Source of the DNA: an uncultured Gaiellales bacterium
GTDB taxonomy: Bacteria; Actinomycetota; Thermoleophilia; Gaiellales; Gaiellaceae
Length of the DNA: 64,000 nucleotides
Direction of reading: 5' to 3'
Assembly (NCBI GenBank): GCA_964602945.1
Contig: CAZRTE010000001.1
Location: forward strand, 7,594-71,593
Part shown: in pieces, positions 9,409-23,913 of the stretch
Numbering within the stretch: the stretch's first letter is position 1
How the letters are laid out: each line of letters opens with the position of its first letter
Translations under genes and position numbers: made by a program
Notes under the pieces: generated by a model
What the model saw: only the letters and a program-made list of their open reading frames with translations
Databases searched by the model: none
Told to the model about the DNA's origin: nothing

Positions 9409-9416
9409 CCTGCTCC

Positions 9417-10301: not shown

Positions 10302-10410
10302 GCCAAGGAGTCTAGGTGACCGTTCTCGTCCCGGCCGAAGTTGGCGCACGATGCGCTCGAGGCCTACACGATCGACCCGGCGACCGGGGTCACCGTCGGC
10401 GACGACGCGG

Positions 10411-10764
10411 TCAACCCGAAACCGGCCGGGCTCCTCTGACCTCGAGCAGCTCGAGCCCGATGTCCTCGCCGATCGGGGCCGGCGTGCCGCAGGACGGGCA
10501 GACGACGAGATGGCCGGCGACGTCGTCCCGCGACAGCCGCCAGGCGGCCCCGCACGCCTCGCAGACGCGCTCGTCCTCGGCCTCCTCGACCAGGAGCCGC
10601 GACCCCTCGAGCGGCGTGTCGAGCGTCTGCATCTCGTATGCCTGCTGGAGCGACTCGGGCGAGAAGACCGGACTCGCCCGGACCCGAACCTCCTCGACGG
10701 CTCCCGCGTCCGGCTCGCCGGCCAGGCGGCGGATCAGGGCGCTCACGGCGTGGTAGTCGTGCAT
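10411..10764 (-). CDS. hypA: Hydrogenase nickel-insertion protein HypA
   Basis: C-terminal 117 aa of artefactual ORF 10411..11880, starting at the ATG at 10764. MHD N-terminus plus a CEAC...CPSC zinc motif. Confidence 0.8.
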   Translation of the reverse strand: MHDYHAVSALIRRLAGEPDAGAVEEVRVRASPVFSPESLQQAYEMQTLDTPLEGSRLLVEEAEDERVCEACGAAWRLSRDDVAGHLVVCPSCGTPAPIGEDIGLELLEVRGARPVSG

Positions 10765-11237
10765 GGCTCTCCCTTCGCTGTGTCCCAGGCCTCGATCTGC
10801 TCCAGCACGCGCCGGCCGAGCTCGTCGAGCGCGGCGGCCACGGACTCGCTGAGCGGCGCACCGAACGTCGGCGGCTCCGCCACCTCGACGGCGAGCACCC
10901 GCGTGCGGCCCGGGAAGCCGAGCCCGAGCCGCTCGGCGACGGCCGCGAGCTCGGGGATTCCCGCGTGGTGGATGCTCGGCGCGACGACCGGCCCCACCTC
11001 GGTCAGCCCGAGCTCGACGATCGTGCCGGGCGGGTTGCGGCCGGTGCGGATCGAGTCCACGACGACGGCACGGTCGTAGCCGTCGAACACGTCGAGCAAG
11101 GTGAGGCCGGACGCCGCGCTCTCGACGACATCGGCCCGGCCGGCGAGCTCGTCCCGGAGCGCGCGCACGGCGAGGATGCCCGCACCGTCGTCGCCCGCGT
11201 ATTCGTTGCCGAGCCCGAGGACGAGCGTGCGCATCAC
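10743..11237 (-). CDS. Hydrogenase maturation endopeptidase (HycI/FrhD/HoxW family) for the Mvh-type enzyme
   Basis: ORF 10743..11237: MRTLVLGLGNEYAGDDGAG. Lies immediately downstream of the large subunit and overlaps the hypA start by 22 nt. Confidence 0.8.
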   Translation of the reverse strand: MMRTLVLGLGNEYAGDDGAGILAVRALRDELAGRADVVESAASGLTLLDVFDGYDRAVVVDSIRTGRNPPGTIVELGLTEVGPVVAPSIHHAGIPELAAVAERLGLGFPGRTRVLAVEVAEPPTFGAPLSESVAAALDELGRRVLEQIEAWDTAKGEPCTTTTP

Positions 11238-12698
11238 TCAATCCCGGCGGAGCTCGCGCACGACCTCGCCGGCCGGGTCGTGGATCTCGACGAGCAGCGG
11301 CAGGTGGCCGGGCAGGGTGTGCGTCGCGCAGCCGAAGCACGGGTCGTAGGCGCGGAACGCCATCTCCACCTTGTTCAGGACCGCCTCGTCGACCTCGGCG
11401 CCGTGGATCAGGTCCCGGGCGGCCTTGTCGATCGACATCCCGATCCGGGCGGCGTTGTTCTGGGTGGCGACGATGAGGTTGGCCGAGGTGATCAGGCCGC
11501 GCTCGTCGCTCCGGTAGTGGTGGAAGAGCGTCCCGCGCGGCGCCTCGACGACGCCGATGCCCTCCTCCGGTGTCGCCGTCGGCAGCGTGCGCACGTCCGG
11601 ATCGAGGATCTCCGGGTCGGCCGCGAGCTCGGCCATCCGCTCCGCCGCGTACTGGAGCTCGACGAGCCGGGCCCAGTGCGTGGCGAGCGTGTGGTGCACC
11701 GGCTTGCCGCCGAGCGTCGCGAAGAGCTCGTCGTACGCCTCCTGCGCCCGCGGCGTGGGCATCCCCTCGGTCACGTTCAGGCGGGCGAGGGGCGCGACGG
11801 CGAAGACGCCGCTGTCCGCCCCGTCGACGAAGCCGTGCCAGCCCACGTCCTTGAGGAAGCAGAACTTCACGTACGTCCACGGCTCGACGTGCTCCGCGAC
11901 GTGGTCGAGGTAGTCGGAGCCGGCGAAGGAGAGGAACTCGCGGCCCTCGGGGTCGACCACCCGGAGCGTGCCGTCGTAGAAGTTGACCTGCTTGTCGGCG
12001 TCGACGAGCCCCATCGAGTACGTGCGGTGCGTGTACGTCTCCGAGGTGACGAGCTCGACGTAGTCCGGGTTGCCGAGCACGACGTCGCGGAACGCCTGCA
12101 GCGCGAAGCCGCCGAAGTCGACGGCGCGCGCGGCGGCCGCCTGCGCCTGCTCCTGGAGCTCGGCCGTGAGCGGGCGCGAGATCCCGCCCGGGAGGCCGAA
12201 GACGGGGTGCACGGCCTTGCCCGCGACCGCGGCCATCAGGTCGCGGAGCTGCTTGCGGACGCCGATCACCTCCTTGCCGGCCTCGAGCCCGACCTTGTTC
12301 ACGACGCCGAGGATGTTCCGCTCGCCCTTCGGCGCGTCCGGGCCGACGATGAAGTCCGGCCCGCCGAGGAAGAAGAAGTGCAGCGCGTGGTCCTCGACCA
12401 TGAAGGCGCTGTAGAGAAGCTCACGGATCTTCTTCGCCGCCGGCGGGGGCTCGACCCCGAAGAGGTCGTCGAGCGCCTTCGTCGCCGCCATGTGGTGGGC
12501 CATCGGACAGACGCCGCAGATGCGCGAGGTGATCTGCGGCATGTCCTCGGCCCGCCGTCCCTGGGCGAACTTCTCGAAGCCGCGCAGCTCGGGGATCTGG
12601 AGGTAGGCGCGGTCGACCTCCCCTGCGTCGTCGAGGAAGACGTGGACGCGCCCGTGTCCCTCGAGGCGCGTGATCGGATCGATCAGGATCTCGCTCAT
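11238..12698 (-). CDS. mvhA: [NiFe]-hydrogenase large subunit, MvhA-like (group 3c by gene context)
   Basis: Real frame inside ORF 11238..13640, starting at the ATG at 12698. MSEILIDPITRLEGHGRV..., N-terminal RICGVCPMAHH, C-terminal DPCFGCATH followed by a 26-aa cleavable extension. Confidence 0.85.
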   Translation of the reverse strand: MSEILIDPITRLEGHGRVHVFLDDAGEVDRAYLQIPELRGFEKFAQGRRAEDMPQITSRICGVCPMAHHMAATKALDDLFGVEPPPAAKKIRELLYSAFMVEDHALHFFFLGGPDFIVGPDAPKGERNILGVVNKVGLEAGKEVIGVRKQLRDLMAAVAGKAVHPVFGLPGGISRPLTAELQEQAQAAAARAVDFGGFALQAFRDVVLGNPDYVELVTSETYTHRTYSMGLVDADKQVNFYDGTLRVVDPEGREFLSFAGSDYLDHVAEHVEPWTYVKFCFLKDVGWHGFVDGADSGVFAVAPLARLNVTEGMPTPRAQEAYDELFATLGGKPVHHTLATHWARLVELQYAAERMAELAADPEILDPDVRTLPTATPEEGIGVVEAPRGTLFHHYRSDERGLITSANLIVATQNNAARIGMSIDKAARDLIHGAEVDEAVLNKVEMAFRAYDPCFGCATHTLPGHLPLLVEIHDPAGEVVRELRRD

Positions 12699-13666
12699 GG
12701 CACGGGCTCCTTCTCGACGCGGTGGTGGAGGGGCGACGCCGGGAGGCTGTAGCGGTAGAACGTGCCGACCGGGTCGGCGATCTCCGCGATCCGGGCGACG
12801 ATCTCGTCCTCCTCGGTCGCGCCGAGCAGGGAGGCGATCGCCGACAGCGCCTTCGCGCCCTGGTCGAGCACGCGGCTCGTCGGGCCCATGCAGCCGGTGC
12901 AGGGCATGTTGCCGCCGATGCACGCGGCGTTGCAGCCCGCGCGCGTGGCGGGGCCGAGGCAGACGAGCCCCTGGGCGAGGAGGCAGATCTCCGGGTCGGC
13001 GACGACCTCGTGCGGCCGCTTGAAGGCCTCGAGCGTGAGCTGCTCGGGCTTCGTCGCGGCCCGCGGGCACTCGGAGCAGAGGGCGACGTCGGGCGCGAGC
13101 ACCGCTCCCTTCTCGGGCGCCGTGCCCTCGACGAGGGCGGTCACTGCGGCGAGGATCAGGTGCGCCGGCGGCGGGCAGCCGGGGAGGTAGTAGTCGACGT
13201 CGATCACCTGGTCGAGCGTGCGCACCGAGGCGTCGAAGCTCGGCAGCGTGAGCGTCCCCTCGTCGACAGCCGACTCCTCCACGGGTCTCGTGGCGCCGTT
13301 CTCCACGCTCGGCGCCTCCTCGTAGACGAAGTCGAGGATCTCGTCGCGCTCGTACTGGTTGGCGAGGCCCGGGATGCCGCCGAGGATGGCGCAGCTGCCG
13401 AAGGCGACGACGGCTCCGGCCTTGCGCCGCAGGAGCTCGACCATCTCCACCTGCTCGGAGGTGCGCACGGCACCGTTGATGAACGCAGCCGCGAGCTCGC
13501 CGTCGCCGAGCGCCTCGACGTCGGTGCGCTTGAAGTCGAGCGCGACCGGCCAGAAGGCGATGTCGACGAGCTCGACGACCGTGAGGATGTCCTCCCCGAG
13601 GTCGACGACCGCCTCCTCGCAGCCGCCGCAGGAGGCACACCAGTAGAAGGCGACTTTCGGCTTCAT
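12695..13666 (-). CDS. mvhG: [NiFe]-hydrogenase small subunit, MvhG-like
   Basis: Inside ORF 12695..14059, starting at the ATG at 13666. MKPKVAFYWCASCGGCEEAV, GSCAILGGIPG, PGCPP, CTGCMGP cluster ligand motifs. 4-nt overlap with mvhA. Confidence 0.85.
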   Translation of the reverse strand: MKPKVAFYWCASCGGCEEAVVDLGEDILTVVELVDIAFWPVALDFKRTDVEALGDGELAAAFINGAVRTSEQVEMVELLRRKAGAVVAFGSCAILGGIPGLANQYERDEILDFVYEEAPSVENGATRPVEESAVDEGTLTLPSFDASVRTLDQVIDVDYYLPGCPPPAHLILAAVTALVEGTAPEKGAVLAPDVALCSECPRAATKPEQLTLEAFKRPHEVVADPEICLLAQGLVCLGPATRAGCNAACIGGNMPCTGCMGPTSRVLDQGAKALSAIASLLGATEEDEIVARIAEIADPVGTFYRYSLPASPLHHRVEKEPVP

Positions 13667-14109
13667 GCCCTCACCCCCGCTTCCACCCGCTCGGCGTGCC
13701 GCAGCCGCAGCGGGCCGAGCGCGCGCAGCTCCTCGGTCATCTCGTTGCAGACGCGCTGCACGGCCTCTCCCTCCGAGGCGGAGATCCACTCCAGCCGCAG
13801 CCGCTCCTTCTCGATCCCCAGGTCGGCGAGGAGGGCGTGGAGGAGCTCGACCCGGCGCCGGGTCTTGTAGTTCCCCTCCGAGTAGTGGCAGTCGCCCGGG
13901 TGGCAGCCGCCGATGAGGACGCCGTCGGCGCCGCCGTGGAAGGCGGCGAGGACGAACTGCGGGTCGACCCTCCCCGAGCACATGAGCCGGATCGCGCGGA
14001 CGTTCGGCGCGTACTGGAGCCGCGAGATGCCCGCAAGGTCGGCGGCGGTGTACGTGCACCAGGTGCAGAAGAAGGCGACGATCTTCGGCTCGAAGTCGGC
14101 CTCAGGCAA
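13663..14109 (-). CDS. mvhD: Methyl-viologen-reducing hydrogenase delta subunit (MvhD)
   Basis: Inside ORF 13663..14193. Proposed TTG start at 14109 overlaps the hdrA stop. PKIVAFFCTWCTY...RLMCSGRVDP...GGCHPGDCHY is the MvhD signature. Confidence 0.75.
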   Translation of the reverse strand: MPEADFEPKIVAFFCTWCTYTAADLAGISRLQYAPNVRAIRLMCSGRVDPQFVLAAFHGGADGVLIGGCHPGDCHYSEGNYKTRRRVELLHALLADLGIEKERLRLEWISASEGEAVQRVCNEMTEELRALGPLRLRHAERVEAGVRA

Positions 14110-17100
14110 GGGCGAGCACCCCCTCCAGCTCGGCGAGCACCTGCTCGTCGGTGAACAGGTGCTGCTGCAGCGCCCCCGACGGGCAGGCGGCAACGCAGAC
14201 GCCGCAGCCCTTGCACAGCACCTCGTTGACCGAGGCGAGATTCGTCGCCGCGTCGAAGGAGATCGCGGCGAACGGGCACAGGCCGACGCACGTCCGGCAG
14301 CCCGAGCACGCCGCCGGCTCGACGAAGGCGGTGCTCGGCTCGAGCTCGACGTGGCCGCGGTCGATCATCGCCAGCACCTCGGCCGCGGCCGCGCCCGCCT
14401 GCGCGACCGTGTCCGGGATGTCCTTGGGGCCCTGGCAGGCGCCGGCGAGGAAGACGCCGTCGGTGAAGGTCGAGACCGGCGCGAGCTTCGGGTGGCGCTC
14501 GGTGAAGAAGCCCTCGGTGCCGCAGCCGATGTTGAACAGGCGGCGCACGTCCTCCGCGTCCGGCTGCGGCTCGATCCCGACGGCGAGCACGACCATGTCC
14601 ACGGCCTCGTGCCTGACCTCGCCGAGCAGCGTGTCCTCGGCGTGGACGACGAGCCTCCCGCGCTCCTCGGTGACCTCGCCGACGCGCCCGCGGACGAACT
14701 GCGTCCCCTCCTGCAGCACGCGGTCGTAGAACTCCTCGTAGCCCTTCCCGGGCGTGCGCATGTCGATGTAGAACTCGACGATCTCGGTGTCCTCGCCCGC
14801 GCGCTCGCGGATCAGGTGGGCGAGCTTGAGCGAGTACATGCAGCAGACGCGCGAGCAGTACGCGTTCGTGTTCGCGTCGCGGGAGCCGACGCAGTGGACG
14901 ATGCCCACCTTCGAGGGCCGGCTGCCGTCGCGCAGCACAAGCTCGCCCTGGGTCGGGCCGGAGGCGTTCAGCAGCCGCTCGACCTCGAGGCTCGTGTACA
15001 CGTTCGGGAGGCGGCCGTAGCCGTAGGCGGGCGCGCGGTGCGCGTCGAAGGCCTGGAAGCCCGTGGCGAGGACGATCGCGCCGACGTCGAGCTCCGTCTC
15101 ACGGTCCGGCATGAGCAGGTCGATCGCGTCGGCCTCGCAGACGGCGATGCACTCCCCGCACTCCGAGCAGACGCCGCAGTCGAGACAGCGCTCGGCGGCG
15201 TAGCGCGCCTCCTCCTCGCTCAGCGGCGGCTCGAGCTCGGCGAAGTCGGCCGGCTCCGGCTCGTGGCGCGTGTGCGGCTCGCGCGGCTCGAGCGGCCGGT
15301 GGGCCGGGTGCGAGCGTGCGAGCACGTCCGCCTTCTCCGCCACCGGCAGCTTCTCGTCGAACTCGATCTCCTCGAGCGTCTCGCCGCGGAGGAAGCGGTC
15401 GACCATGAACGCGGCGCGGCGCCCCTGCCCGACGGCGTGCGCGATGTCGAGAGCGCCGAGGACGGCGTCGCCGGCGGCGAAGACCCACGGCACGGCGGTC
15501 TGGAGCGTCCGCGGCTCCGTTGCGGAGAGGTCGCCCGCGAGCGCGCCGTCCGCGCTGAGCCCGATCGCGGCGATCACCGTGTCGCAGGGGATCACGTGCT
15601 CGCTGCCCGGCACCGGCTCGGGCCGCCGGCGGCCGGACGCGTCGGGCTCGCCGAGCTCGGTGCGCACGCAGCGCAGCCCCGTCACGCGGCCGTCGCCCTC
15701 CACCGAGACGGGGGCGACCTGGAAGGCGAGCGCCGTCCCCTCCTGCTCGGCGGCCTCGATCTCCTCCGGATAGGCGGGCATCTCGGTGCGGCTGCGGCGG
15801 TACGCGATCGTCACCTCGCGCGCCCCGAGGCGGCGCGCGCTGCGAGCGGCGTCCATGGCGACGTTCCCGCCGCCGACCACCACGACGCGCTCACCCTCGA
15901 GGCGCGGCGCCCGGCCGTCCTTGACGGCCTCGAGGAAGTCGAGTCCCGAGCGGACGCCGTCGAGCTCCTCGCCCGGCACGCCGAGCCGGGTCGAGACGGG
16001 CGCGCCGGTGGCGACGAGCACCGCGTCGAAGCCCCGGCCGTGCAGCTCCTCGAGGTCGCCGACGCGCGTGCCGGTCTCGATCCGGACGCCGATCGCGGTC
16101 ACGTTCTCGATGTCCCGCTCGACGACGGCGGCGGGCAGCCGGTAGTCGGGGATCGCGAGGCGGAGCATCCCGCCGGGCTCCGCCTCGGACTCGAAGATCG
16201 TCACGCCGTGGCCGCGGCGGCGCAGCTGCCAGGCCGCGGTGAGGCCGGCGGGGCCGGAGCCGACGACGGCGACGCGCGTGCCGTTCGTGGGCGGCGCCTC
16301 GAGCTCGCTCGCGGCGTGCGTCGCGTAGTGCCGGTCGGCGATGAAGCGCTTGAGCCGCCGGATCGGCACCGGGGTCTCGAGGTCGTCGCGGGTGCACTCG
16401 TCCTCGCACTGCGCGTAGCAGGCGCGGCCGAGCGTGCCGACGAGCGGGGTCGCGTCGAGCACGAGCTGGAACGCCTTCTCGTACTCGCCGGCGCGGACGA
16501 GCGACACGTAGCCGTGCGCCTTGATCCCCGCCGGGCAGTTGAACGTGCAGCGGGAGGTGCCCGCGCGGTCGATCACCGGGATCGCCGGAATGGCCTGCGG
16601 GAACGGCTTGTACGCGACGGGGCGCGTGCCGAGGCCCTCGTCGAACTCGGAGGAGATCCCGCGCCACGTGCAGTGCTCGACGCACAGGTCGCAGCCGGTG
16701 CACGCCTCCTCGTCGATGAAGCGCGACTTCCGCCGCACCTTGACCTTGAAGTTGCCGACGTAGCCCGAGACCTCCTCGACCTCGCTGAAGCTCAGGAGCT
16801 CGATGTTCGGGTGCTGGCCCGCCTGCACCATCTTCGGGGTGAGGATGCAGGCGGCGCAGTCGAGGGTCGGGAACGTCTTGTCGAACTTCGCCATGTGGCC
16901 GCCGATCGTCCCCTCGCGCTCGACGAGGTAGACGTGCTTGCCCGACTCGGCGAGCGTGAGCGCGGCGTGGATGCCCGCGATGCCGCCGCCGACGACGAGC
17001 GCGTCCGGGTGCACGGGCACCTGGCGGCGCTCGAGGGACTCCTGCGCGGCGACCCGCCGCACCGCCCCCGCGACGAGCGCCTTCGCCTTCTCGGTGGCCG

Positions 17101-17452
17101 CGTCGCCGTCCGCGGTCACCCAGCTGACGTGCTCGCGGATCGAGGCCATCTGGAAGAGGAAGGGGCTGACGCCGCCCGCCTCCGTGGCGCGCCGGAAGGT
17201 CGCCTCGTGCATCAGCGGCGAGCAGGAGGCGACGACGACCCGGTCGACGAGCCCCTCGCGGACGTCCTGGACGATCAGCTCCTGGCCCGGGTCGGAGCAC
17301 ATGAACTTGTACTCGCGCGCGACCGCGACGTACGGCAGCGTCGCGGCGAAGTCGACGACCTCGCCGACGTCGACCTTCTGGGCGATGTTCAGGCCGCAGT
17401 GGCAGACGTAGACGCCGATCTTCGGCGAGCCGTTCTGCTCAAACGCCGGCAC
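14102..17452 (-). CDS. hdrA: HdrA-like heterodisulfide reductase subunit A with an inserted NfnB/GltD-like FAD/NAD(P)H module (1116 aa)
   Basis: ORF 14102..17452. HdrA motifs: IGVYVCHCGLNIA, VVGGGIAGIHAAL, TLDCAACILTPK, CTGCDLCVEHC, YCSRVCCMYS, C-terminal 2x4Fe-4S. Residues ~296-690 look GltD-like: CTFNCPAGI...GRACYAQCEDEC, VAVVGSGPAGL, VVVVGGGNVAMD. Confidence 0.85.
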   Translation of the reverse strand: MPAFEQNGSPKIGVYVCHCGLNIAQKVDVGEVVDFAATLPYVAVAREYKFMCSDPGQELIVQDVREGLVDRVVVASCSPLMHEATFRRATEAGGVSPFLFQMASIREHVSWVTADGDAATEKAKALVAGAVRRVAAQESLERRQVPVHPDALVVGGGIAGIHAALTLAESGKHVYLVEREGTIGGHMAKFDKTFPTLDCAACILTPKMVQAGQHPNIELLSFSEVEEVSGYVGNFKVKVRRKSRFIDEEACTGCDLCVEHCTWRGISSEFDEGLGTRPVAYKPFPQAIPAIPVIDRAGTSRCTFNCPAGIKAHGYVSLVRAGEYEKAFQLVLDATPLVGTLGRACYAQCEDECTRDDLETPVPIRRLKRFIADRHYATHAASELEAPPTNGTRVAVVGSGPAGLTAAWQLRRRGHGVTIFESEAEPGGMLRLAIPDYRLPAAVVERDIENVTAIGVRIETGTRVGDLEELHGRGFDAVLVATGAPVSTRLGVPGEELDGVRSGLDFLEAVKDGRAPRLEGERVVVVGGGNVAMDAARSARRLGAREVTIAYRRSRTEMPAYPEEIEAAEQEGTALAFQVAPVSVEGDGRVTGLRCVRTELGEPDASGRRRPEPVPGSEHVIPCDTVIAAIGLSADGALAGDLSATEPRTLQTAVPWVFAAGDAVLGALDIAHAVGQGRRAAFMVDRFLRGETLEEIEFDEKLPVAEKADVLARSHPAHRPLEPREPHTRHEPEPADFAELEPPLSEEEARYAAERCLDCGVCSECGECIAVCEADAIDLLMPDRETELDVGAIVLATGFQAFDAHRAPAYGYGRLPNVYTSLEVERLLNASGPTQGELVLRDGSRPSKVGIVHCVGSRDANTNAYCSRVCCMYSLKLAHLIRERAGEDTEIVEFYIDMRTPGKGYEEFYDRVLQEGTQFVRGRVGEVTEERGRLVVHAEDTLLGEVRHEAVDMVVLAVGIEPQPDAEDVRRLFNIGCGTEGFFTERHPKLAPVSTFTDGVFLAGACQGPKDIPDTVAQAGAAAAEVLAMIDRGHVELEPSTAFVEPAACSGCRTCVGLCPFAAISFDAATNLASVNEVLCKGCGVCVAACPSGALQQHLFTDEQVLAELEGVLALA

Positions 17453-18356
17453 CGACCGCTCCTTCCGCCCCAGCGAGCTCCGGCAGCCGCCAGCCGATCA
17501 TCCGCGGGATCCCGAGCGTCCGCTCGTCGAGCCCGAGCGCGAGCCCGACGAGCTGCGTGAAGTACGCGACCGTGAGCTCGATCGGCTCGAACGTGCGCGA
17601 CATCTGCCCCTGGAACGCCTCGAGGTTGAACTGGCAGAGCGGGCACACGCTCGCGACGACGTTGGCCCCGCGCTCGCGCGCGTCCTGCAGCAGCTCGAAG
17701 CTGCGCTTGAGCGTCGCCTCGGGCAGCGCGCCGACGATCGGGCCGCCGCAGTAGCAGGAGCCGCCGCAGCAGCGGGTGCGGCGCGGCCACTCGATCGTCT
17801 CCGCCCCGAGCGCCTGCATCAGCCGCTCCATCGAGGTCGGCTCGCGCCGGTCGTCGAAGGTCGCGTACGGGCGAACGAGGAGGCAGCCGTAGTAGCAGGC
17901 GACGCGCAGGCCCTCGAGCGGGCGGACGACCGCCTCGGCGATCCGGTCGAGTCCGACGTCGTTGACGAGCACGTCCAGGGGGTGCCGGGTGCGCGCCCGG
18001 CCGGCGTAGTCGAGCCCGACCGCCTGGAGAGCCCCGCCGACGCGCTCCGCCTCGGCCCCGCCGCCCTCGAGCAGGCGCTCGGTCTTCAGCAGCGCGCGGT
18101 AGCAGCCCGCGCAGGGAGCGACGAGGTCGACGTTCTCCGCATCCGGCCACGCATCCTCTGCGAGCGCGAGATTGCGCGCGGAGAGCGCGAACCCCTTCGC
18201 CGCATCCGTGGACGGGTAGGCCGTCGCACCGCAGCAGTTCCAGTCGTCGAGGGCGTCGAGGCCGCTGCCGAGCGTCTCGAACACCGCGAGCAGCGACTCC
18301 TCGTAGGGGCGCCCCGTGCCTCCTGCAGAGCAGCCCGGATAGTACGAGTAGCTCAT
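17439..18356 (-). CDS. hdrB: Heterodisulfide reductase subunit B (two CCG domains)
   Basis: Inside ORF 17439..18845, starting at the ATG at 18356. MSYSYYPGCS..., WNCCGA and TRCCGGS CCG motifs. Overlaps the hdrA start by 14 nt. Confidence 0.85.
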   Translation of the reverse strand: MSYSYYPGCSAGGTGRPYEESLLAVFETLGSGLDALDDWNCCGATAYPSTDAAKGFALSARNLALAEDAWPDAENVDLVAPCAGCYRALLKTERLLEGGGAEAERVGGALQAVGLDYAGRARTRHPLDVLVNDVGLDRIAEAVVRPLEGLRVACYYGCLLVRPYATFDDRREPTSMERLMQALGAETIEWPRRTRCCGGSCYCGGPIVGALPEATLKRSFELLQDARERGANVVASVCPLCQFNLEAFQGQMSRTFEPIELTVAYFTQLVGLALGLDERTLGIPRMIGWRLPELAGAEGAVGAGV

Positions 18357-18853
18357 CCCGCCGCCTCCGTCGGCGGCTCGAGCGCGGCGAGCAGCTGCCG
18401 GACCTGCGCCCGCCCGCGGTTCCGCTCCCGCCGGAAGCTCATCCGCCCCGAGCGGAGCAGGCGGAGCGCGAGCGGTGCGTTGCGCACGAGCTGCAGCGGC
18501 CGCGTCCGCAGGTAGAGCGAGATCGAGATCCACGACTCGGTGCTCCGCCCCCACCGGTCGACCGACCCGACGAAGGCGCGCACCATGACCGGGGACGGGA
18601 ACCGCCGCGGGTAGAGGTCGCGCTGCATCGACTCGCGCTTGAGCGCGTAGATGGCGTCGGTGATCGGAATCTGCTTCGGGCACTCGACGGTGCACGCGTA
18701 GCAGGAGGTGCACACCCAGATCGTGCGGCCGCGCATGAGCTCGTCCGCGTGCTCTCCGCGCACCAGCGCCACGACCTGGCGCGGCAGCAGCTCCATGTAG
18801 TCGCTCATCGGGCAGACGGCGCTGCACGTCCCGCACTGGAGGCACGGATCCAC
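18353..18853 (-). CDS. hdrC: Heterodisulfide reductase subunit C (2x[4Fe-4S])
   Basis: ORF 18353..18853 (GTG start): CLQCGTCSAVCP and CTSCYACTVECP. 4-nt overlap with hdrB. Confidence 0.85.
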   Translation of the reverse strand: MDPCLQCGTCSAVCPMSDYMELLPRQVVALVRGEHADELMRGRTIWVCTSCYACTVECPKQIPITDAIYALKRESMQRDLYPRRFPSPVMVRAFVGSVDRWGRSTESWISISLYLRTRPLQLVRNAPLALRLLRSGRMSFRRERNRGRAQVRQLLAALEPPTEAAG

Positions 18854-19027
18854 GACATCCGTCTGCTCCGCGGAGAGAGCAGATTCGACCGGCCGCGTAT
18901 CGAGAGCGGTGCCCGTGTCAGCCCTGCCTTTCTCGACATCTCAGGCCTAACACGGCGACGATGACCGGCCTTCGGTACTTCCTACTCACAGACCTGCGGA
19001 CACCCCCGCCAACCGCTACAACCACGT

Positions 19028-19043
19028 GGTTGTCCTCGCCGAG
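19028..19043. promoter_or_regulatory. Perfect 16-bp palindrome ACAACCACGTGGTTGT in the hdrC/hypF divergent intergenic region (candidate operator)
   Basis: Read directly. Located 95 nt upstream of the hypF ATG and 175 nt from the hdrC start, within the lowest-GC stretch of the 284-bp spacer. Confidence 0.4.
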
Positions 19044-19137
19044 GTGGCGCGTCTCCACCGCGAGGTCGGTACCGGGACCGGTCGCCGTGCGGCTTTCCCG
19101 CGATGCCGCGGCATGTGCGCGGCGGCACGCTCTCCCT

Positions 19138-21291
19138 ATGGCCGCGGTGAGCCTACAGCGCCGCCGCTTCCGGGCGCGAGGAGTCGTCCAGGGCGTGGGG
19201 TTCCGTCCCTTCGTCCACCGGCTCGCGCGCGCGCACGGCCTCGCCGGGTTCGTCCTCAACGACGGCGCCGGCGTGGTGATCGAGGCCGAGGGGCCGGCCT
19301 GGGAGCTCGACGCGTTCGCCGCCGAGATCGTGCGGGAGGCACCGGCCCTCGCCCGTGTGGAGTCGCTCGCCGCGGTCCCGGTCGGCCTCCGCCACGACGA
19401 CGCCTTCGCCATCCGCACGAGCGCCGCCGGCGGCGGGGCGGCGGCCGTCGTCCCGCCCGACGTCGCCACCTGCGACGACTGCCTGCGCGAGCTGTTCGAT
19501 CCGGGCGACCGGCGCTACCGCTACCCGTTCCTCAACTGCACCCAGTGCGGCCCGCGTCTCACGATCGTCCGCTCGGTGCCGTACGACCGTCCGCGGACGA
19601 CGATGGCGGGCTTCGAGCTCTGCCCCGACTGCCGCCGCGAGTACGAGGACCCGGCGGATCGCCGCTTCCACGCCGAGCCGATCGCATGCCCGGCCTGCGG
19701 GCCGCAGCTGTCGCTGCCGCTCGAGGAGGCGGTCGCGATCCTGCGCACGGGCGGGATCGTCGCGATCAAGGGGATCGGCGGCTACCACCTCGCGTGCCTC
19801 GCCGGCGACGAGGACGCGGTCGCACGTCTGCGCGCACGCAAGCACCGCGAGGAGAAGCCGCTCGCGCTGATGACCGGCGATCCGGACGCGCTCTGTGTCC
19901 TCGACTCCGAGGAGCGGGCCCTGCTCTCGTCACCGGCGCGGCCGATCGTGCTCGCGCACCGCCGTGTGGACGCAGCCGTCGCCGAGTCCGTCTCCCCCGG
20001 CTCGCCCTGGCTCGGCGTGATGCTGCCGTACTCGCCGCTGCACCATCTCCTCTGGCACGACCTCGGCCTGCCGATCGTGCTCACGAGCGGCAACAGGAGC
20101 GACGAGCCGATCGCCTTCGACGACGAGGAGGCACGCACCCGGCTGGCCGGCATCGCCGACGCGTTCCTCGGTCATGACCGCCCGATCCACCGGCGCTGCG
20201 AGGACTCCGTCGTCCGCCGGGGCGCCGTTCTGCGCCGCTCGCGGGGCTACGCGCCGCAGCCGCTGCCGCTGCCGGTCCCCGCTCCCAGGCCGCTCGTCGC
20301 CGCCGGCGGCGAGCTCAAGAGCACCTTCTGCGCCGTGCGCGGCGCGGAGGCGTTCCTGTCCGCGCATCTCGGCGATCTCGACTCCGCGCAGGCCTACCGG
20401 GCGTTCCGCGAGGACCTGCGCCTGTACCTCGAGATGCTCCGCATCGCGCCGGAGGCCGTGGCCTGCGATCTCCATCCCGAGTACCTCTCCACGAAGTGGG
20501 CGCACGACCTCGGCCTCGACGTCGTCGGCGTCCAGCACCACCACGCCCACGCGGCCGCGTGCCTCGCCGAGCACGGCGAGACGGGGCCGGCTCTCGCGCT
20601 CGTGTTCGACGGCACGGGCTACGGCCCGGACGGAACGCTCTGGGGCGGCGAGCTCCTGCGCGCCGACCTCGGCGGCTACGAGCGGCTCGCCTGGCTCGAC
20701 CCGGTGCCGCTGCCGGGCGGCGAGGCGGCGATCCGCGAGCCGTGGCGGATCGCGGCTGCTCAGCTCGAGCGGGCCGGCCTCCCGGTGCCGTGGCCGGCGT
20801 GGGAGCAGGTGCGCGCCAGCCTCGCCGTCAACGCGCCGCTCGCGTCCGGCATGGGCCGGCTCTTCGATGCCGTCGCCGCGATCCTCGGCGTCCGCGAGCA
20901 CATCTCGTACGAAGGGCAGGCGGCGATCGAGCTCGAGCTCCTCGCGGGCGACACCCCGGCCGAGCCGCTCCCGTGGGCGTTCGGAGCCACGAGCGAGCTG
21001 GTAACAGACTGTTACTTGCTCCTGCGGGAGGGCCGCCCGCGGGAGGAGATCGCGGCCGTGTTCCACGAGACGGTCGCCGCCTCGGCGGCCGCCGCCTGCT
21101 GCGCGTTCGACGGGGACACCGTCGTCCTGTCCGGCGGCAGCTTCCAGAACCGGCGGCTGGCGGCGGCGACCCGCGCGCGGCTCGAGGAGTCGGGCCGCCG
21201 CGTGCTCGAGCACAGGCTCGTGCCGGCGAACGACGGCGGGATCAGCTTCGGCCAGGCCGCCGTGGCCGCCTGGAGGCTCGCATGTGCCTAG
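19138..21291 (+). CDS. hypF: Carbamoyltransferase HypF
   Basis: ORF 18961..21291 trimmed to the ATG at 19138, just before the acylphosphatase motif (VQGVGFRPFV). CxxC zinc fingers (CDDC, CTQC, CPDC, CPAC), a YrdC-like region and a Kae1-like region. Confidence 0.9.
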   Translation: MAAVSLQRRRFRARGVVQGVGFRPFVHRLARAHGLAGFVLNDGAGVVIEAEGPAWELDAFAAEIVREAPALARVESLAAVPVGLRHDDAFAIRTSAAGGGAAAVVPPDVATCDDCLRELFDPGDRRYRYPFLNCTQCGPRLTIVRSVPYDRPRTTMAGFELCPDCRREYEDPADRRFHAEPIACPACGPQLSLPLEEAVAILRTGGIVAIKGIGGYHLACLAGDEDAVARLRARKHREEKPLALMTGDPDALCVLDSEERALLSSPARPIVLAHRRVDAAVAESVSPGSPWLGVMLPYSPLHHLLWHDLGLPIVLTSGNRSDEPIAFDDEEARTRLAGIADAFLGHDRPIHRRCEDSVVRRGAVLRRSRGYAPQPLPLPVPAPRPLVAAGGELKSTFCAVRGAEAFLSAHLGDLDSAQAYRAFREDLRLYLEMLRIAPEAVACDLHPEYLSTKWAHDLGLDVVGVQHHHAHAAACLAEHGETGPALALVFDGTGYGPDGTLWGGELLRADLGGYERLAWLDPVPLPGGEAAIREPWRIAAAQLERAGLPVPWPAWEQVRASLAVNAPLASGMGRLFDAVAAILGVREHISYEGQAAIELELLAGDTPAEPLPWAFGATSELVTDCYLLLREGRPREEIAAVFHETVAASAAAACCAFDGDTVVLSGGSFQNRRLAAATRARLEESGRRVLEHRLVPANDGGISFGQAAVAAWRLACA
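20997..21019. repeat. AT-rich 23-mer GCTGGTAACAGACTGTTACTTGC inside hypF, containing the perfect palindrome GTAACAG-A-CTGTTAC
   Basis: Read directly. Encoded by rare codons GTA ACA GAC TGT TAC TTG (LVTDCYL). 19/23 identical to 229..251 in the same orientation. Confidence 0.4.
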
Positions 21292-21512
21292 GCATCCCCG
21301 GCCAGGTGCTCGAGCGGCTGCCGGACGGCCTCGCGCAGGTCGACTTCGGCGGCGTGCGCCGCTCGGTGAGCGTCGCGTTCACGCCCGAGGCCGAGCCGGG
21401 CGACTGGGTGCTCGTCCATGTCGGCTTCGCGCTCGCGACGCTCGACGAGGAGGAGGCGCAGGCCACCCTCGACCTGCTCGGCGAGGCGCTCGAGGCGGAG
21501 CTCTCGCCGTGA
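21282..21512 (+). CDS. hypC: Hydrogenase assembly chaperone HypC
   Basis: Last 76 aa of artefactual ORF 20496..21512. MCLGIPGQV N-terminus; overlaps the hypF stop. Confidence 0.85.
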   Translation: MCLGIPGQVLERLPDGLAQVDFGGVRRSVSVAFTPEAEPGDWVLVHVGFALATLDEEEAQATLDLLGEALEAELSP

Positions 21513-22624
21513 GGTACGTCGACGAGTACCGGGACAGCCGCGCGGCGAAGGCGATCGCCGCCGAGCTGCGTACGCTCGTCGAGCCGGGAGCGCACGTGAA
21601 GCTCATGGAGGTGTGCGGCGGGCACACGCACGCGATCTACCGGCACGGCATCGACACGCTGCTCCCCGACGAGGTCGAGCTCGTCCACGGGCCGGGTTGC
21701 CCGGTCTGCGTCATCCCGATGGGACGGGTCGACGACGCGATCACGATCGCCGAGCGGCCCGAGGTGACGTTCACGAGCTTCGGCGACATGTTGCGCGTGC
21801 CGGGCGGCCGGCGGCGGTCGCTCCTCGAGGCGAAGGCGCGCGGCGCGGACGTGCGCATCGTCTACTCGCCGCTCGACGCGCTCGCGATCGCGCGCGCGGA
21901 GCCGCAGCGCGAGGTCGTCTTCTTCGGGGTCGGCTTCGAGACGACGGCGCCGGCGGTCGCGCTGACGCTGATCCGGGCGCGCGAGCTCGGGGTGCGCAAC
22001 TTCTCCGTCTTCTGCAACCACGTGCTCGTCTCCCCCGCGCTGCGCGCGATCCTCGACGCTCCCGAGACGGAGATCGACGGCTTCATCGGCCCCGGGCACG
22101 TGTCCACGGTGATCGGCACGCGGCCGTACGAGTTCATCAGCCGCGAGTACGGCCGCCCCGTCGTCGTCGCCGGGTTCGAGCCGACCGACATCCTCCAGGC
22201 GGTCGCCCGGCTGCTCGGCCAGCTCCGCGCAGGCCGCGCGGAGGTCGAGAACCAGTACGGCCGCGTCGTGCGTGACGAGGGCAACCCCGCCGCCCTCGCG
22301 GCGCTCGAGCGCGTCTTCACCGTCCGCGACGACTTCGAGTGGCGCGGGCTCGGCGCCATCCCGCGCAGCGGCTTCCGCATCGCCGACGCGTTCGCCGAGT
22401 GGGACGCCGAGAACCGCTTCGAGGTACCGGGCGCGCGGATCGAGGATCCGAAGGCCTGCCGCTGCGGCGACGTGCTCCGCGGCCTGGCCAAACCCTACGA
22501 GTGCGGCGTGTTCGGCACGGCCTGCACGCCGGAGAAGCCGCTCGGCACGTGCATGGTCTCGAGCGAGGGCGCGTGCGCCGCGTACTACGCCTACGGGCGG
22601 CACCGGCCGAAGGTGCCTGCATGA
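21509..22624 (+). CDS. hypD: Hydrogenase formation protein HypD
   Basis: Inside ORF 21284..22624. The GTG at 21509 overlaps the hypC stop. Motifs: CGGHTHAI, GPGCPVCV, FETTAP. Confidence 0.9.
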   Translation: MRYVDEYRDSRAAKAIAAELRTLVEPGAHVKLMEVCGGHTHAIYRHGIDTLLPDEVELVHGPGCPVCVIPMGRVDDAITIAERPEVTFTSFGDMLRVPGGRRRSLLEAKARGADVRIVYSPLDALAIARAEPQREVVFFGVGFETTAPAVALTLIRARELGVRNFSVFCNHVLVSPALRAILDAPETEIDGFIGPGHVSTVIGTRPYEFISREYGRPVVVAGFEPTDILQAVARLLGQLRAGRAEVENQYGRVVRDEGNPAALAALERVFTVRDDFEWRGLGAIPRSGFRIADAFAEWDAENRFEVPGARIEDPKACRCGDVLRGLAKPYECGVFGTACTPEKPLGTCMVSSEGACAAYYAYGRHRPKVPA

Positions 22625-23640: not shown

Positions 23641-23913
23641 TCAGCCTTCCGGCAGCTCGACCTCGACGGTCTCGAGGACGACCCCGGTCGCCTGCGGATC
23701 GTCGAGATCCTGCTCGAGCACGGCGTCGACGCGGGCGCCCTCCGCGACGGTGCCGCGCGAGGCGTCGTCGAAGTGCTCCCGGAAGTGCTCCGGCGTGAAG
23801 TGCGACAAGGCGCCGAGCCGCACGCCCACGCGCGTCACCCGGACCGCGTCCTCGGCGCGCGCGACGGTCTCGATCTCCCGGACGAGATCGCTCATGAGGG
23901 CGCGCTCGTGCAT
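23641..23913 (-). CDS. HypA-like protein lacking the zinc-finger module (90 aa, no Cys)
   Basis: C-terminal 90 aa of artefactual ORF 23641..24501, starting at the ATG at 23913. MHERALMSDLVREIE... is collinear with HypA up to AEGARVDAV, then DLDDPQAT replaces the CxxC...CxxC region. Confidence 0.65.
   Translation of the reverse strand: MHERALMSDLVREIETVARAEDAVRVTRVGVRLGALSHFTPEHFREHFDDASRGTVAEGARVDAVLEQDLDDPQATGVVLETVEVELPEG

Follow-up and report, generated by a model that had tools for sequence, protein, structure and literature searches.

The 64-kb window analyzed here, meaning the whole stretch of DNA, encodes a 1116-aa HdrA (14102..17452, - strand) that holds a GltD/NfnB-like module and is found in a row with hydrogenase and HdrBC genes, and the question it raises is how H2, NAD(P)H and a disulfide could be connected by a single complex. 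The original prediction took this protein for a candidate hub coupling all three, with a design noted before in sulfate reducers (HdrL-type) but not known from an mvhDGA-hdrABC operon of an actinobacterial-type genome.

Domain scans, homologues and an AF2 model place the product of this gene among the long, type III HdrA or HdrL-like proteins, and it is almost certainly a complete, canonical electron-bifurcating HdrA of this class with a spliced-in GltD-like cassette. HdrA models match it in two stretches (NF040770, 802 bits, best stretch 756-1112), confirming the canonical HdrA segments predicted at both ends, and every motif quoted for them (CHCG, GGGIAG, TLDCAAC, CCMYS and the terminal 2x CxxCxxCxxxC) is found in the translation. 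The HdrA halves, residues 1-295 and ~762-1116, flank the GltD/NfnB-like module (296-761), and phmmer comparison with solved HdrA chains gives ~680-700 bits. In Foldseek searches, the AF2 structure (a monomer model, mean pLDDT 79) matches HdrA chains 5odc_A and 8rvu_A with a target-normalised TM of 0.82-0.83 and the insert as a gap, and it also matches GltD-like domains. The HdrA parts that are retained include the N-terminal [4Fe-4S] domain, a thioredoxin-reductase-like FAD domain with K876, which is the equivalent of K409, the FAD-N5 lysine of 5odc_A (PMC6405883), and the C-terminal 2x[4Fe-4S] domain. Of the 37 Cys, 35 are retained by 115 or more of the 119 homologues, whose identity to the present protein is 53-100%. 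The inserted ferredoxin domain has two Cys motifs whose ligands are invariant in 119/119 homologues: motif 1 (C251, C254, C257, C261; 16670..16702, -) is common to long and short-form HdrA, and motif 2 (C762, C765, C768, C772; 15137..15169, -) stands where short forms carry C-x7-C-x3-C-x3-C.

There is practically no chance that this architecture is an artefact, produced by an assembly error or frameshift that fused two genes or by a decaying pseudogene. The hdrA ORF is one unbroken 1116-codon frame, not two genes split by a frameshift as had been considered, with a GC3 of 0.99 and a codon phase that is even from 14102 to 17452; it begins with GTG at 17452, and AAGGAG is found 7 nt upstream. 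Homologue clusters of 1090-1180 aa (n=119), which come from independent assemblies, are of equal length and collinear with at least 96% of the protein, and all of its cofactor ligands are intact. On the opposite strand, ORF 13913-17560 (+, 1215 aa) was rejected as a high-GC shadow, as its Arg/Ala/Gly-rich translation is without a Pfam match.

The 657-aa short forms of HdrA in related Actinomycetota (L055, L060 and L065) do not have the cassette, and alignment with them shows its ~465 residues (~296-761; 15170..16567, -) entering the inserted ferredoxin domain exactly between Cys motifs 1 and 2. Residues 299-692 match Fer4_20 (PF14691) and Pyr_redox_2 (E 3e-43) as well as GltD/NfnB-type models (PRK12771, 479 bits; TIGR01316, 287 bits), and the motifs quoted for this region (CTFNCPAGI, GRACYAQCEDEC, GSGPAG and GGGNVAMD) are all present in the translation. 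These matches bear out a FAD/NAD(P)H module with Fe-S ligands, as opposed to a plain linker without dinucleotide folds, but its end lies at ~761 and not at the predicted 690. Within the cassette, residues 299-380 (16313..16558, -; PF14691 Fer4_20, profile 30-110) form the Fe-S part and contain C302, C306, C345, C349, C353 and K368, which are invariant in 119/119 homologues, and K368 aligns with StnC K170. Residues 392-692 (15377..16279, -; Pyr_redox_2 3e-43), modeled with pLDDT mostly 82-95 and a few lower blocks, comprise a FAD fold (GSGPAG, 398-403) and an NADPH fold (GGGNVA, 527-532; YRR, 551-553) whose motifs are conserved in 114-119 of the 119 homologues. Conservation extends to GxGxxG, to GxGxxA with A532 (119/119), to YRR (114/119) and to R438 (118/119), and the sequence GxGxxA followed by YRR suggests a preference for NADPH.

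Beyond a low-confidence linker (residues 693-734; 15251..15376, -) with pLDDT 48-53 and weak conservation in two alignments, residues 735-760 (15173..15250, -; DFAELEPPLSEEEARYAAERCLDCG), which contain C756 and C759, align with the N-termini of NfnB/NfnL and appear to be the N-terminal portion of the GltD Fe-S domain, moved to a new position. When 735-760 were pasted before 300-385, the Fer4_20 score increased from 56.9 to 80.7 bits (+24) and the profile match lengthened from 31-110 to 4-110; to judge from its sequence, the cassette is circularly permuted. Its final Cys pair is contiguous with ferredoxin motif 2 (C762-C772) as C756-x2-C759-x2-C762, and since C756 and C759 run directly into this motif, the cassette and HdrA clusters must be neighbours. 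The cassette is predicted to contribute another FAD and an NADPH-type Rossmann fold, and its seven Cys together with K368 would ligate two further [4Fe-4S] clusters.

The top sequence and fold matches of the cassette are StnC (Sporomusa ovata StnABC, 8OH5) and Bfu-type NfnA (9BOV, 9N5U), with 306-339 bits (339 and 306 for the two types), 38-39% identity and collinearity with residues 103-575 of 9bov_A, 9n5u_A and 8oh5_C that includes the trailing RCLxCG segment. In these proteins, as in HdrA, the GltD-like module is itself inserted in a larger Fe-S protein, but their host is NuoG-like, a subunit of bifurcating enzymes of the Bfu type (FMN), and the module delivers NADPH electrons to the bifurcating center. 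The FAD of StnC-type GltD domains takes NADPH electrons and relays them singly down an Fe-S chain without bifurcating, and the proximal cluster of this type has a Lys ligand, in contrast to the Glu of bifurcating NfnB (PMC10482914); K368 places a Lys at this site in the present HdrA. NfnB/NfnL (4YLF, 5JCA) and GltD have the same fold (target-normalised TM ~0.75, rmsd 2.9-3.3) and likewise have sites for FAD, NADPH and two [4Fe-4S] clusters, but score lower (250 bits for NfnB, and 236) and carry in its normal place the N-terminal Fe-S segment that is permuted here; NfnAB also has an NfnA partner, whereas the present HdrA is without one. The GltD-like domains of StnC and Bfu-type NfnA, which do not bifurcate, are therefore nearer to the cassette than is bifurcating NfnB, so the description of the cassette as NfnB-like holds for the general GltD/NfnB type and not for its nearest relatives or its proximal ligand.

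Domain scans also confirmed the predicted gene row, a tightly packed hdrC-hdrB-hdrA-mvhD-mvhG-mvhA-protease-hypA series on the - strand in which start and stop codons of hdrC/B/A and mvhD/G/A overlap or abut. hdrC (18353..18853; 166 aa, GC3 0.96) encodes a 2x[4Fe-4S] ferredoxin-like subunit (Fer4_8/Fer4_9/Fer4_17) whose top NCBIfam match is CoB_CoM_SS_C (68 bits, cutoff 160). Its stop overlaps the hdrB ATG at 18356 (ATGA), and hdrB (17439..18356; 305 aa) encodes the disulfide-reducing subunit, with PF02754 in two stretches, two CCG domains (YYPGC..NCCG..CAGC and CYYGC..RCCGG..CPLC) and a TIGR03288 score of 159 bits (cutoff 345). mvhD (13663..14109; PF02662 FlpD 5e-55; VhuD 133 bits), for a [2Fe-2S] adaptor, probably starts at TTG 14109, an uncertain assignment; its stop overlaps the ATG at 13666 (ATGA) of mvhG (12695..13666; Oxidored_q6; VhuG 197 bits), for the [NiFe]-hydrogenase small subunit. 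mvhA (11238..12698; 486 aa; NiFeSe_Hases; top NCBIfam match VhuA, 369 bits) encodes a group 3c-type large subunit in which RICGVCPMAHH and AYDPCFGCATH correspond to the group 3c L1 and L2 motifs (PMC6085437). Downstream of mvhA, as in most related loci, is a HycI-type maturation protease gene (10743..11237; PF01750), followed by a hypA-like nickel metallochaperone gene (10411..10764, start approximate) that was placed by a PF01155 match to residues 373-467 of ORF 10411..11880 and by a codon phase change at ~10380-10740. Divergent hyp maturation genes (18961..23631, +; Pfam domains) include hypF (18961-21291; HypF domains), hypD (within 21284-22624; HypD 1e-155) and a hypE-like gene (within 22339-23631; AIRS/AIRS_C). 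The original prediction overlooked two features that lie only 6-12 kb away: another hydrogenase, NADP-type and group 3b-like, and a gene for a flavoprotein disulfide reductase. As predicted, no DsrC, TusA or lipoyl-carrier domain was found in the ~50 window ORFs scanned, and there was no sign of methane metabolism within the 64 kb.

The claim of novelty does not survive comparison with databases and the literature. A search for the same domain order and neighbours yielded at least 119 protein clusters of this length (1090-1180 aa). Of 44 related genome loci that could be assessed, 26 show full synteny (hdrCBA-mvhDGA with long HdrA), across ~11 bacterial phyla and including several other Actinomycetota MAGs. 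The architecture is that of a class known as HdrL or type III HdrA and spread over many bacterial phyla. HdrL, described in 2009 with the same design in the sulfate reducers Desulfobacterium autotrophicum and Syntrophobacter fumaroxidans, is likewise a large HdrA/glutamate-synthase fusion that contains one or more domains binding NAD(P)H; its gene is next to mvhD, and it has been suggested to connect NAD(P)H with a disulfide such as DsrC (PMC2702500, PMC5947623). HdrL loci, however, usually lack mvhA and mvhG, may have two NADH domains and selenocysteine, and are near dsr or fdh, whereas the present row has a complete Mvh hydrogenase and HdrBC in a window without DsrC. A separate class of ~1300-1530 aa, which matches only residues ~150-1030 of the long HdrA, may be the HdrL type proper. 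As outlined in a 2025 report, Bathyarchaeota have a type III HdrA that is otherwise of type I but whose inserted ferredoxin domain is likewise broken up by a GltD/NfnB-like domain, with mvhADG alongside (PMC12054007); the present, bacterial (Actinomycetota-like) protein aligns collinearly, at 45% identity, with one locus from Bathyarchaeota (L039). That archaeal survey found nine sequences only, and NADH use was deduced from a GXGXXG motif (PMC12054007), in contrast to GxGxxA then YRR in the present family; the accessible descriptions of the archaeal proteins make no mention of a circular permutation or a Lys ligand. The MvhAGD-HdrABC complex of hydrogenotrophic methanogens (5ODC, 8RVU) has an identical six-subunit gene set, and its HdrA core fold, FAD-N5 lysine, HdrB CCG motifs and group 3c MvhA motifs are all preserved here, but the ferredoxin-reducing domain of the present HdrA bears an NADPH cassette, and the present subunits are all far under the CoB-CoM heterodisulfide reductase and Vhu equivalog cutoffs. 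By any evidence here, nothing points to CoM-S-S-CoB as the substrate disulfide.

We tentatively favor, at somewhat less than even confidence, a mechanism in which bifurcation is coupled to H2 and a disulfide and NADP(H) occupies the branch otherwise used by ferredoxin, probably in place of ferredoxin and not alongside it. Long HdrA, HdrBC and MvhAGD would form an H2-oxidising complex, as supported by abutting hdr and mvh genes whose order is kept in 26 loci. Electrons from H2 would pass through MvhD to the HdrA FAD; one would take the downhill path via HdrC, reach the CCG clusters of HdrB and reduce the disulfide, and the other, low-potential electron would move through the inserted-ferredoxin clusters to the cassette instead of to free ferredoxin. 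The cassette FAD would gather two such electrons and reduce NADP+, for a net 2 H2 + R-S-S-R' + NADP+ -> 2 thiols + NADPH + H+. This mechanism is supported by the insertion point of the cassette at the low-potential exit, by its similarity to modules that merely pass electrons on, and by the strong constraint on the cofactor sites. The inserted ferredoxin domain serves ferredoxin reduction, and the Bathyarchaeota report notes that ferredoxin might be kept out by a GltD insert (PMC12054007). Coupling of H2, NAD(P)H and a disulfide, as predicted for this locus, is reasonable and matches an idea in that report, although calling the complex a three-way hub overstates it. If the mechanism is correct, its benefit would be that H2 could still drive NADPH formation when H2 pressure is low and the direct reaction, H2 -> NADP+, runs uphill. 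At 1 bar H2, NADP+ reduction requires no bifurcation, so the energetic rationale presupposes a low-H2 habitat, and with the group 3b-like hydrogenase encoded in the same window, another route from H2 to NADP+ seems in part superfluous.

The direction of electron flow, with NADP(H) as acceptor and not donor, is read from the insertion site only, and the published archaeal hypothesis has NAD(P)H as donor and H2 as product, which counts against the NADP+-acceptor mechanism (PMC12054007). In that less probable yet credible scheme, NAD(P)H would be a mid-potential donor through the cassette and inserted-ferredoxin clusters, the HdrA FAD would bifurcate downhill to the disulfide and, via MvhD and MvhAG, to protons, so that H2 is evolved, and the reverse reaction could make NAD(P)H by confurcation. 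The anatomy of the long HdrA fits it equally well, the homologous StnC module runs in the NADPH-oxidising direction, group 3c hydrogenases are considered bidirectional (PMC8092238), and the scheme is published for type III HdrA with mvhADG. It would, however, turn the MvhD route, an input in solved complexes, into a low-potential output and the inserted ferredoxin domain, the low-potential exit in all structures described, into an entry; NADPH -> H2 at low ambient H2 requires no coupling, and the reverse reaction would use up thiols with no regenerating system evident.

Two further readings differ from the NADP+-acceptor mechanism in the number of flavins that bifurcate. Bifurcation at both flavins, with the cassette FAD acting like the NfnB b-FAD and NADPH, ferredoxin, H2 and disulfide joined in a double bifurcation, is disfavored as very improbable: two such sites were speculated for ANME-1 HdrA-NfnB fusions (PMC9012536) and R438, the equivalent of NfnB R187/R201, is kept in 118/119 homologues, but this arginine is also kept in non-bifurcating StnC and no conserved NfnA-type partner was found beside hdrA. 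The StnC-like Lys, which replaces the NfnB Glu in 119/119 homologues, and scores against StnC and Bfu-type NfnA that exceed those against NfnB therefore make a second bifurcating flavin unlikely. It is rather improbable, though less so, that neither flavin bifurcates and that the complex is a disulfide reductase fed by H2 (Mvh) or NADPH (cassette) or, equivalently, an H2:NADP+ oxidoreductase with HdrBC for thiol-redox homeostasis. By established redox potentials, H2, NADPH and typical disulfides do not need bifurcation to be connected under standard conditions, Hdr and Mvh subunits so far under methanogen cutoffs may have diverged in function, and the nearby flavoprotein disulfide reductase and NADP-type hydrogenase suggest a general H2/NADPH/thiol redox island. 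Against this stands the strict conservation of the HdrA bifurcation apparatus (the K409 equivalent, the cluster ligands and both exit branches), and short and long HdrA forms interchange within an otherwise identical operon, which suggests that the low-potential partner alone has changed.

The hdrA gene, which lies on the minus strand at 14102-17452, comprises 1116 codons in one open frame, begins at a GTG codon (17452) with AAGGAG seven bases before it, and has a GC3 of 0.99 and a coding phase that is constant from end to end, in a window whose GC content is 72%. The original prediction described its product as a giant HdrA with an inserted NfnB/GltD-like module; every motif string on which that description was based is found in the translation, and a domain scan placed the HdrA models in two separate stretches, with residues 299-692 matching Fer4_20, Pyr_redox_2 and models of the glutamate synthase small subunit/NfnB type. 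The same prediction allowed that a frameshift might have joined two genes. An artefact of this or any other fusion is ruled out, with a negligible residual chance, by the uniform GC3 and phase and by 119 homologue clusters of 1090-1180 aa from independent assemblies, all collinear with the query. A plus-strand ORF at 13913-17560 (1215 aa) was also considered and rejected as a gene, given its Arg/Ala/Gly-rich product, its wrong codon-position GC and its zero Pfam matches. It is a high-GC antisense shadow longer than the real hdrA gene, a reminder that at 72% GC the length of an ORF is by itself a poor guide.

Outside the inserted module, the protein has the features of HdrA: a thioredoxin-reductase-like FAD domain with a GxGxxG fold (GGGIAG, residues 155-160), an N-terminal [4Fe-4S] domain (ligands C17, C19, C52 and C77), an inserted 2x[4Fe-4S] ferredoxin domain (C251-261 and C762-772) and a C-terminal 2x[4Fe-4S] ferredoxin domain (C1049-1059 and C1080-1090), with the ligands of all three Fe-S domains kept in at least 118 of the 119 homologues. 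In addition, C854, C866, C870, C871 and K876 align with C386, C399, C403, C404 and K409 of the HdrA structure 5odc_A, and these [4Fe-4S] and lysine positions are either conserved in all but at most one of the 119 homologues or invariant in two alignments (A1, of the query with short HdrA proteins, and A2); in 5odc_A, K409 makes a hydrogen bond to N5 of the bifurcating FAD (PMC6405883). An AlphaFold2 model (mean pLDDT 79, with the inserted cassette mostly at 82-95) aligned to HdrA 5odc_A/8rvu_A by Foldseek with target-normalised TM scores of 0.82-0.83, the cassette appearing as a gap. Genes for hdrC and for an hdrB with two CCG domains lie directly upstream, with overlapping start and stop codons.

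The domain design itself will not surprise a specialist, since it has already received two names, HdrL in 2009 and type III HdrA in 2025. HdrL was detected in the Syntrophobacter proteome (PMC2702500, PMC5947623), and a 2022 study describes ANME-1 "HdrA-NfnB" proteins in which an insertion interrupts the inserted ferredoxin domain (PMC9012536). The 2025 survey defines type III HdrA as a protein that has a GltD-like FAD/NAD(P)H domain within the inserted ferredoxin domain and is otherwise type I, models the GltD domain beside that ferredoxin domain, suggests that it could block ferredoxin, reports a Bathyarchaeota type III HdrA cluster that includes mvhADG, and proposes coupling of NADH, heterodisulfide and H2 (PMC12054007). 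In the query the insert lies between Cys motifs 1 and 2, with the Pfam and NCBIfam GltD matches at 299-692, and the protein is a bacterial member of this known class. The central idea of the original prediction, a coupling of H2, NAD(P)H and a disulfide, is thus partly supported as an inference, but it is not new, because the survey already proposes such a coupling for archaea (PMC12054007). What is added here is that the cassette is of the StnC type, is spliced in permuted form and carries NADPH-type motifs, and that the Mvh-linked form is broadly distributed in bacteria. Within the literature searched, which lay mostly outside subscription journals, we found no description of the broad bacterial Mvh-linked distribution, the permutation or the Lys ligand; earlier accounts of the bacterial Mvh-linked form may exist beyond it.

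The bounds of the insert were set by aligning the query with 657-aa HdrA proteins that lack the cassette (L055, L060 and L065), from related Actinomycetota MAGs; these proteins are 72-74% identical to the query over the common parts. In this alignment (A1) the extra segment begins past "V-I-D" after the first CxxCxxCxxxC motif (C251-C261) and ends at the second (C762-C772), so the insert spans residues ~296-761 instead of ending near residue 690. From its N-terminal end it consists of an Fe-S segment (C302, C306, C345, C349, C353 and K368), an FAD fold (GSGPAG), an NAD(P)H fold (GGGNVA, then YRR), a linker (residues 693-734) of poor conservation and low model confidence, and a final segment, DFAELEPPLSEEEARYAAERCLDCG (residues 735-760), which aligns as the counterpart of the N-terminus of NfnB and GltD. 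Residues 300-385 alone score 56.9 bits against Pfam Fer4_20 (profile positions 31-110), and pasting residues 725-760 ahead of them raises the score to 80.7 bits and extends the match to positions 4-110, a result that makes the cassette a circular permutation of the GltD and NfnB arrangement. At the splice, two cassette residues (C756 and C759) run on into four of HdrA (C762, C765, C768 and C772) as a single unbroken C-x2-C-x2-C-x2-C-x2-C-x3-C series, and the cassette and HdrA clusters bound there must therefore adjoin. The seven Cys of the cassette plus K368 provide ligands for two additional [4Fe-4S] clusters, which would bring the predicted content of this HdrA to eight [4Fe-4S] clusters and two FAD.

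The best PDB sequence matches of the cassette are NfnA proteins of the Bfu type (9bov_A, 339 bits; 9n5u_A, 336 bits) and StnC (8oh5_C, 306 bits), ahead of NfnB/NfnL (250 and 236 bits) and GltD (~175 bits). It is collinear with residues 103-575 of the NfnA/StnC chains, from the "PC..CP" start through the trailing "RCLxCG", and a Foldseek search with the AlphaFold2 model ranks these relatives as the sequence search does (E ~1e-40 for StnC/Bfu-NfnA). StnC, too, has its GltD-like module (residues 102-565) inserted in a larger Fe-S protein. This module takes electrons from NADPH, sends them singly down Fe-S clusters and can no longer bifurcate; its proximal cluster carries Lys170 where bifurcating NfnB carries Glu (PMC10482914). 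The query has a Lys (K368) at the StnC Lys170 position, as do all 119 homologues, which argues for an affinity with this non-bifurcating type. At the NfnB 'LERF' Glu position the query reads 'LKRF', and no NfnA partner gene is found alongside: a PyrK-like gene of NfnA type, with [2Fe-2S], FAD and an NAD site, was absent from the hdr-mvh row and is no conserved neighbour across the loci surveyed. The description "NfnB-like" therefore holds at the level of the fold, but scores and the Lys ligand place the specific affinity with StnC/Bfu-NfnA, whose GltD fold with FAD, an NADPH site and two [4Fe-4S] clusters, Lys cluster ligand and placement within a larger Fe-S protein the cassette shares. Unlike those modules, which reside in NuoG-like proteins, it is hosted by HdrA.

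A YRR after the second Rossmann strand and a GxGxxA fingerprint are common to the query and to the NADPH-using StnC and NfnB sequences, from which we infer that the cofactor of the cassette is NADPH rather than NADH. The archaeal survey took NADH use from a GXGXXG motif (PMC12054007), whereas in the long-form family of the query GXGXXG belongs to the FAD fold. The 119 long-form clusters have 53-100% identity to the query, and 35 of its 37 Cys are each kept in at least 115 of them; K368 is kept in all, R438 in 118, YRR in 114, and the FAD and NAD(P)H glycines together with A532 in 116-119. Such wide retention of ligands and motifs indicates that the cassette is clearly a functional module and not a decaying insertion. 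In five of the 119 homologues Leu-Glu replaces Arg-Arg at residues 552-553 (window 15794-15799); judged by sequence, these could be natural NADH-preferring variants.

The gene order on the minus strand is hdrC (18353-18853), hdrB (17439-18356, both CCG motifs intact), hdrA, mvhD (13663-14109), mvhG (12695-13666), mvhA (11238-12698), a HycI-type protease gene and hypA. ATGA stop/start overlaps join hdrC to hdrB (18353-18356), mvhD to mvhG (13663-13666) and mvhG to mvhA (12695-12698), hdrB overlaps hdrA by 14 nt (17439-17452), two junctions in the row being short overlaps, and the hdr-mvh row would form one translationally coupled unit. A promoter and terminator scan of 9300-19200 gave no signal above chance. 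Group 3c [NiFe]-hydrogenases are recognised by the MvhA motifs L1 (ICGxCxxxH) and L2 (AYDPCxxCATH) together with mvhG, mvhD and hdrABC (PMC6085437). MvhA carries RICGVCPMAHH (L1) and AYDPCFGCATH (L2) with mvhG, mvhD and hdrCBA adjacent, which identifies group 3c by motifs, and its best NCBIfam match is VhuA, at a score under the cutoff of that model; the other Mvh subunits, too, score well under their methanogen equivalog cutoffs.

Divergent hypF, hypD and hypE-like genes adjoin the hdr-mvh row, and beyond them lies a second [NiFe]-hydrogenase cluster (23892-28875, minus strand) of the NADP-coupled group 3b ('sulfhydrogenase') type. This cluster encodes a beta-like Fer4_22 protein (27706-28875), a PyrK-like gamma subunit (26426-27274), a small subunit (within 25656-26948), a large subunit (24368-25663) and its own HycI-type protease (23892-24419), all on the minus strand; its best NCBIfam matches are ShyA/HydA, HydB and HydG, each below cutoff. 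Directly upstream, at 28925-30250 on the minus strand, lies the one other gene of disulfide-reductase type that the window contains. Its 441-aa product is a class I pyridine-nucleotide-disulfide oxidoreductase, with Pyr_redox_2 and a dimerisation domain; the best matches, to models for MerA, lipoamide dehydrogenase and mycothione reductase, stay far under the cutoffs, and the gene might bear on which thiol system the H2 island serves. The whole H2 island (9417-32275), comprising the 3b-like hydrogenase, hypF/D/E and hdrCBA-mvhDGA-protease-hypA, is flanked by pnp/M16 peptidase and dapA/rnj, within a housekeeping stretch that also carries nusA, infB, truB, ribF and rpsO and whose gene order we take to be typical of actinobacteria; this order and the nearest homologues are the grounds for calling the window Actinomycetota-like. 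As predicted, no DsrC, TusA or lipoyl-carrier domain occurs among the ~50 window ORFs scanned. The 4682 ORFs of 81 loci were also compared with one another by BLAST for an extra conserved neighbour that might be a thiol carrier. Besides hdr, mvh and hycI, the recurrent neighbours are response regulators, ABC ATPases, HypB, ferritin, a ParA/NUBPL-family Fe-S-cluster P-loop NTPase and 3b beta/gamma subunits, none of them present at more than roughly one locus in four.

Bacterial Mvh-Hdr gene sets appear in many metagenome studies, where they are usually annotated by analogy with methanogens. To our knowledge, the bacteria that have these gene sets produce neither CoM nor CoB. When the subunits were compared with the equivalogs for methanogen CoB-CoM heterodisulfide reductase (NF041778, NF040770, TIGR03288 and TIGR03290) at curated NCBIfam cutoffs, all fell short (HdrA 802 vs 1100 and 561 vs 1400; HdrB 159 vs 345; HdrC 68 vs 160), so the homology does not justify classing them as a CoM-S-S-CoB reductase, and scores this far below cutoff leave that substrate without support. 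The finding matters less as a new kind of system, which the window does not reveal, than for what it says about a large and widespread subset in which the ferredoxin-reducing domain of HdrA is occupied by an NADPH module of the electron-relay-only kind. This placement narrows the possible reactions to coupling of H2, NADP(H) and a disulfide, and it pinpoints candidate functional residues (K368, C756/C759 and YRR 551-553), with cultured carriers of the long form in Acididesulfobacillus acetoxydans and Thermosulfidibacter takaii.

Solved complexes show that low-potential electrons leave the HdrA FAD by way of the inserted ferredoxin domain, and that modules of the GltD type trade electrons in pairs with NADPH and singly with Fe-S chains (PMC10482914). 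In the mechanism we favor, which is a realistic prospect short of an even chance, the low-potential electron would pass through the cassette to NADP+, rather than to ferredoxin, while the high-potential electron would reduce a disulfide at HdrB. The midpoint potentials (E0') are -414 mV for H+/H2, -320 mV for NADP+/NADPH and ~-140 mV for CoM-S-S-CoB. At 1 Pa H2 the Nernst equation places the H2 couple at ~-266 mV, so coupling would be profitable only at low H2, which would fit the peat and wet-soil sources of the relatives as judged by sample names. The opposite direction, with NAD(P)H as donor and H2 evolved, is unlikely by our estimate; it shares the NADPH oxidation known for StnC, but at low H2 it would need no coupling. 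An uncoupled reductase is more doubtful still, the lysine and ligands around the bifurcating FAD of HdrA being kept in nearly every homologue. Tandem bifurcation, which would add the cassette as a second bifurcating site, is very improbable, with Lys in place of the NfnB Glu throughout the family. More tentatively than the NADP+-reducing mechanism itself, and with the balance against it, we suggest that long-form Mvh-Hdr could be a class of bifurcating hydrogenases that turn low-pressure H2 into NADPH, not reduced ferredoxin, paid for by reducing a disulfide other than CoM-S-S-CoB or DsrC. Such a class would span some twelve bacterial phyla from peat, sediments and anoxic soils, and its cassette could be a portable redox plug, circularly permuted, that entered HdrA and the Bfu NuoG-like subunit in separate events.

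The best 120 matches in a set of 5.8 billion proteins all share the architecture of the query, and named sources among them include Streptosporangiaceae, Solirubrobacteraceae, Acidobacteriota, Sumerlaeia, Hydrogenedentes, Syntrophorhabdaceae and Thermosulfidibacter takaii; 50% clustering gives many more representatives. A survey of one-genome-per-species contigs kept 80 loci, of which ~56 have the cassette. The order hdrC-(B)-A(long)-mvhD-G-A is found in 26 of the 44 cassette loci with enough flanking DNA, in Actinomycetota, Aminicenantes, Fraserbacteria, Sumerlaeia, Myxococcales, Planctomycetia, Bipolaricaulota/Acetothermia, Bacteroidota, Melioribacteraceae, Calditrichota and Bacillota (Acididesulfobacillus acetoxydans and Peptococcaceae CEB3); the other 18 adjoin a 3b-like hydrogenase or hdrCB and mvhD only. 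An identical operon with short HdrA occurs in sister Actinomycetota (L055, L059, L060 and L062) and elsewhere. In neighbor-joining trees, the actinobacterial long clade is sister to the actinobacterial short clade by HdrA core, and the actinobacterial cassettes group with those of Aminicenantes (L005) and Desulfofundulus (L044 and L047) by insert, a pattern that hints at separate acquisition or exchange of the cassette instead of simple loss; because the trees are without support values and sampling is biased, we draw no conclusion on gain versus loss.

Several loci depart from this arrangement. At seven of them, from Eubacteriales, Clostridiales and Aminicenantes MAGs (L016, L018, L019, L021, L031, L033 and L056), hdrC-hdrB-hdrA(long) lies beside a 3b-like set (beta, gamma, delta and alpha) in place of mvhDGA, and no mvhD was detected there; the 3b link is not specific to the long form, since 3b beta/gamma genes also adjoin some short-form loci. 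Two loci of Hadesarchaea/Hadarchaeota (L037 and L049), with mvhG/mvhA upstream on the opposite strand, encode an HdrA relative of ~1460 aa in which ~650 extra residues separate the N-terminal HdrA part from the GltD cassette; this may be another variant of the architecture. Finally, a large class of ~1300-1530-aa proteins (P0123-P0144 and others) matches query residues ~150-1030 in one stretch, plus two further stretches; these proteins have the FAD domain and the cassette without the N-terminal domain, and may be HdrL proper.
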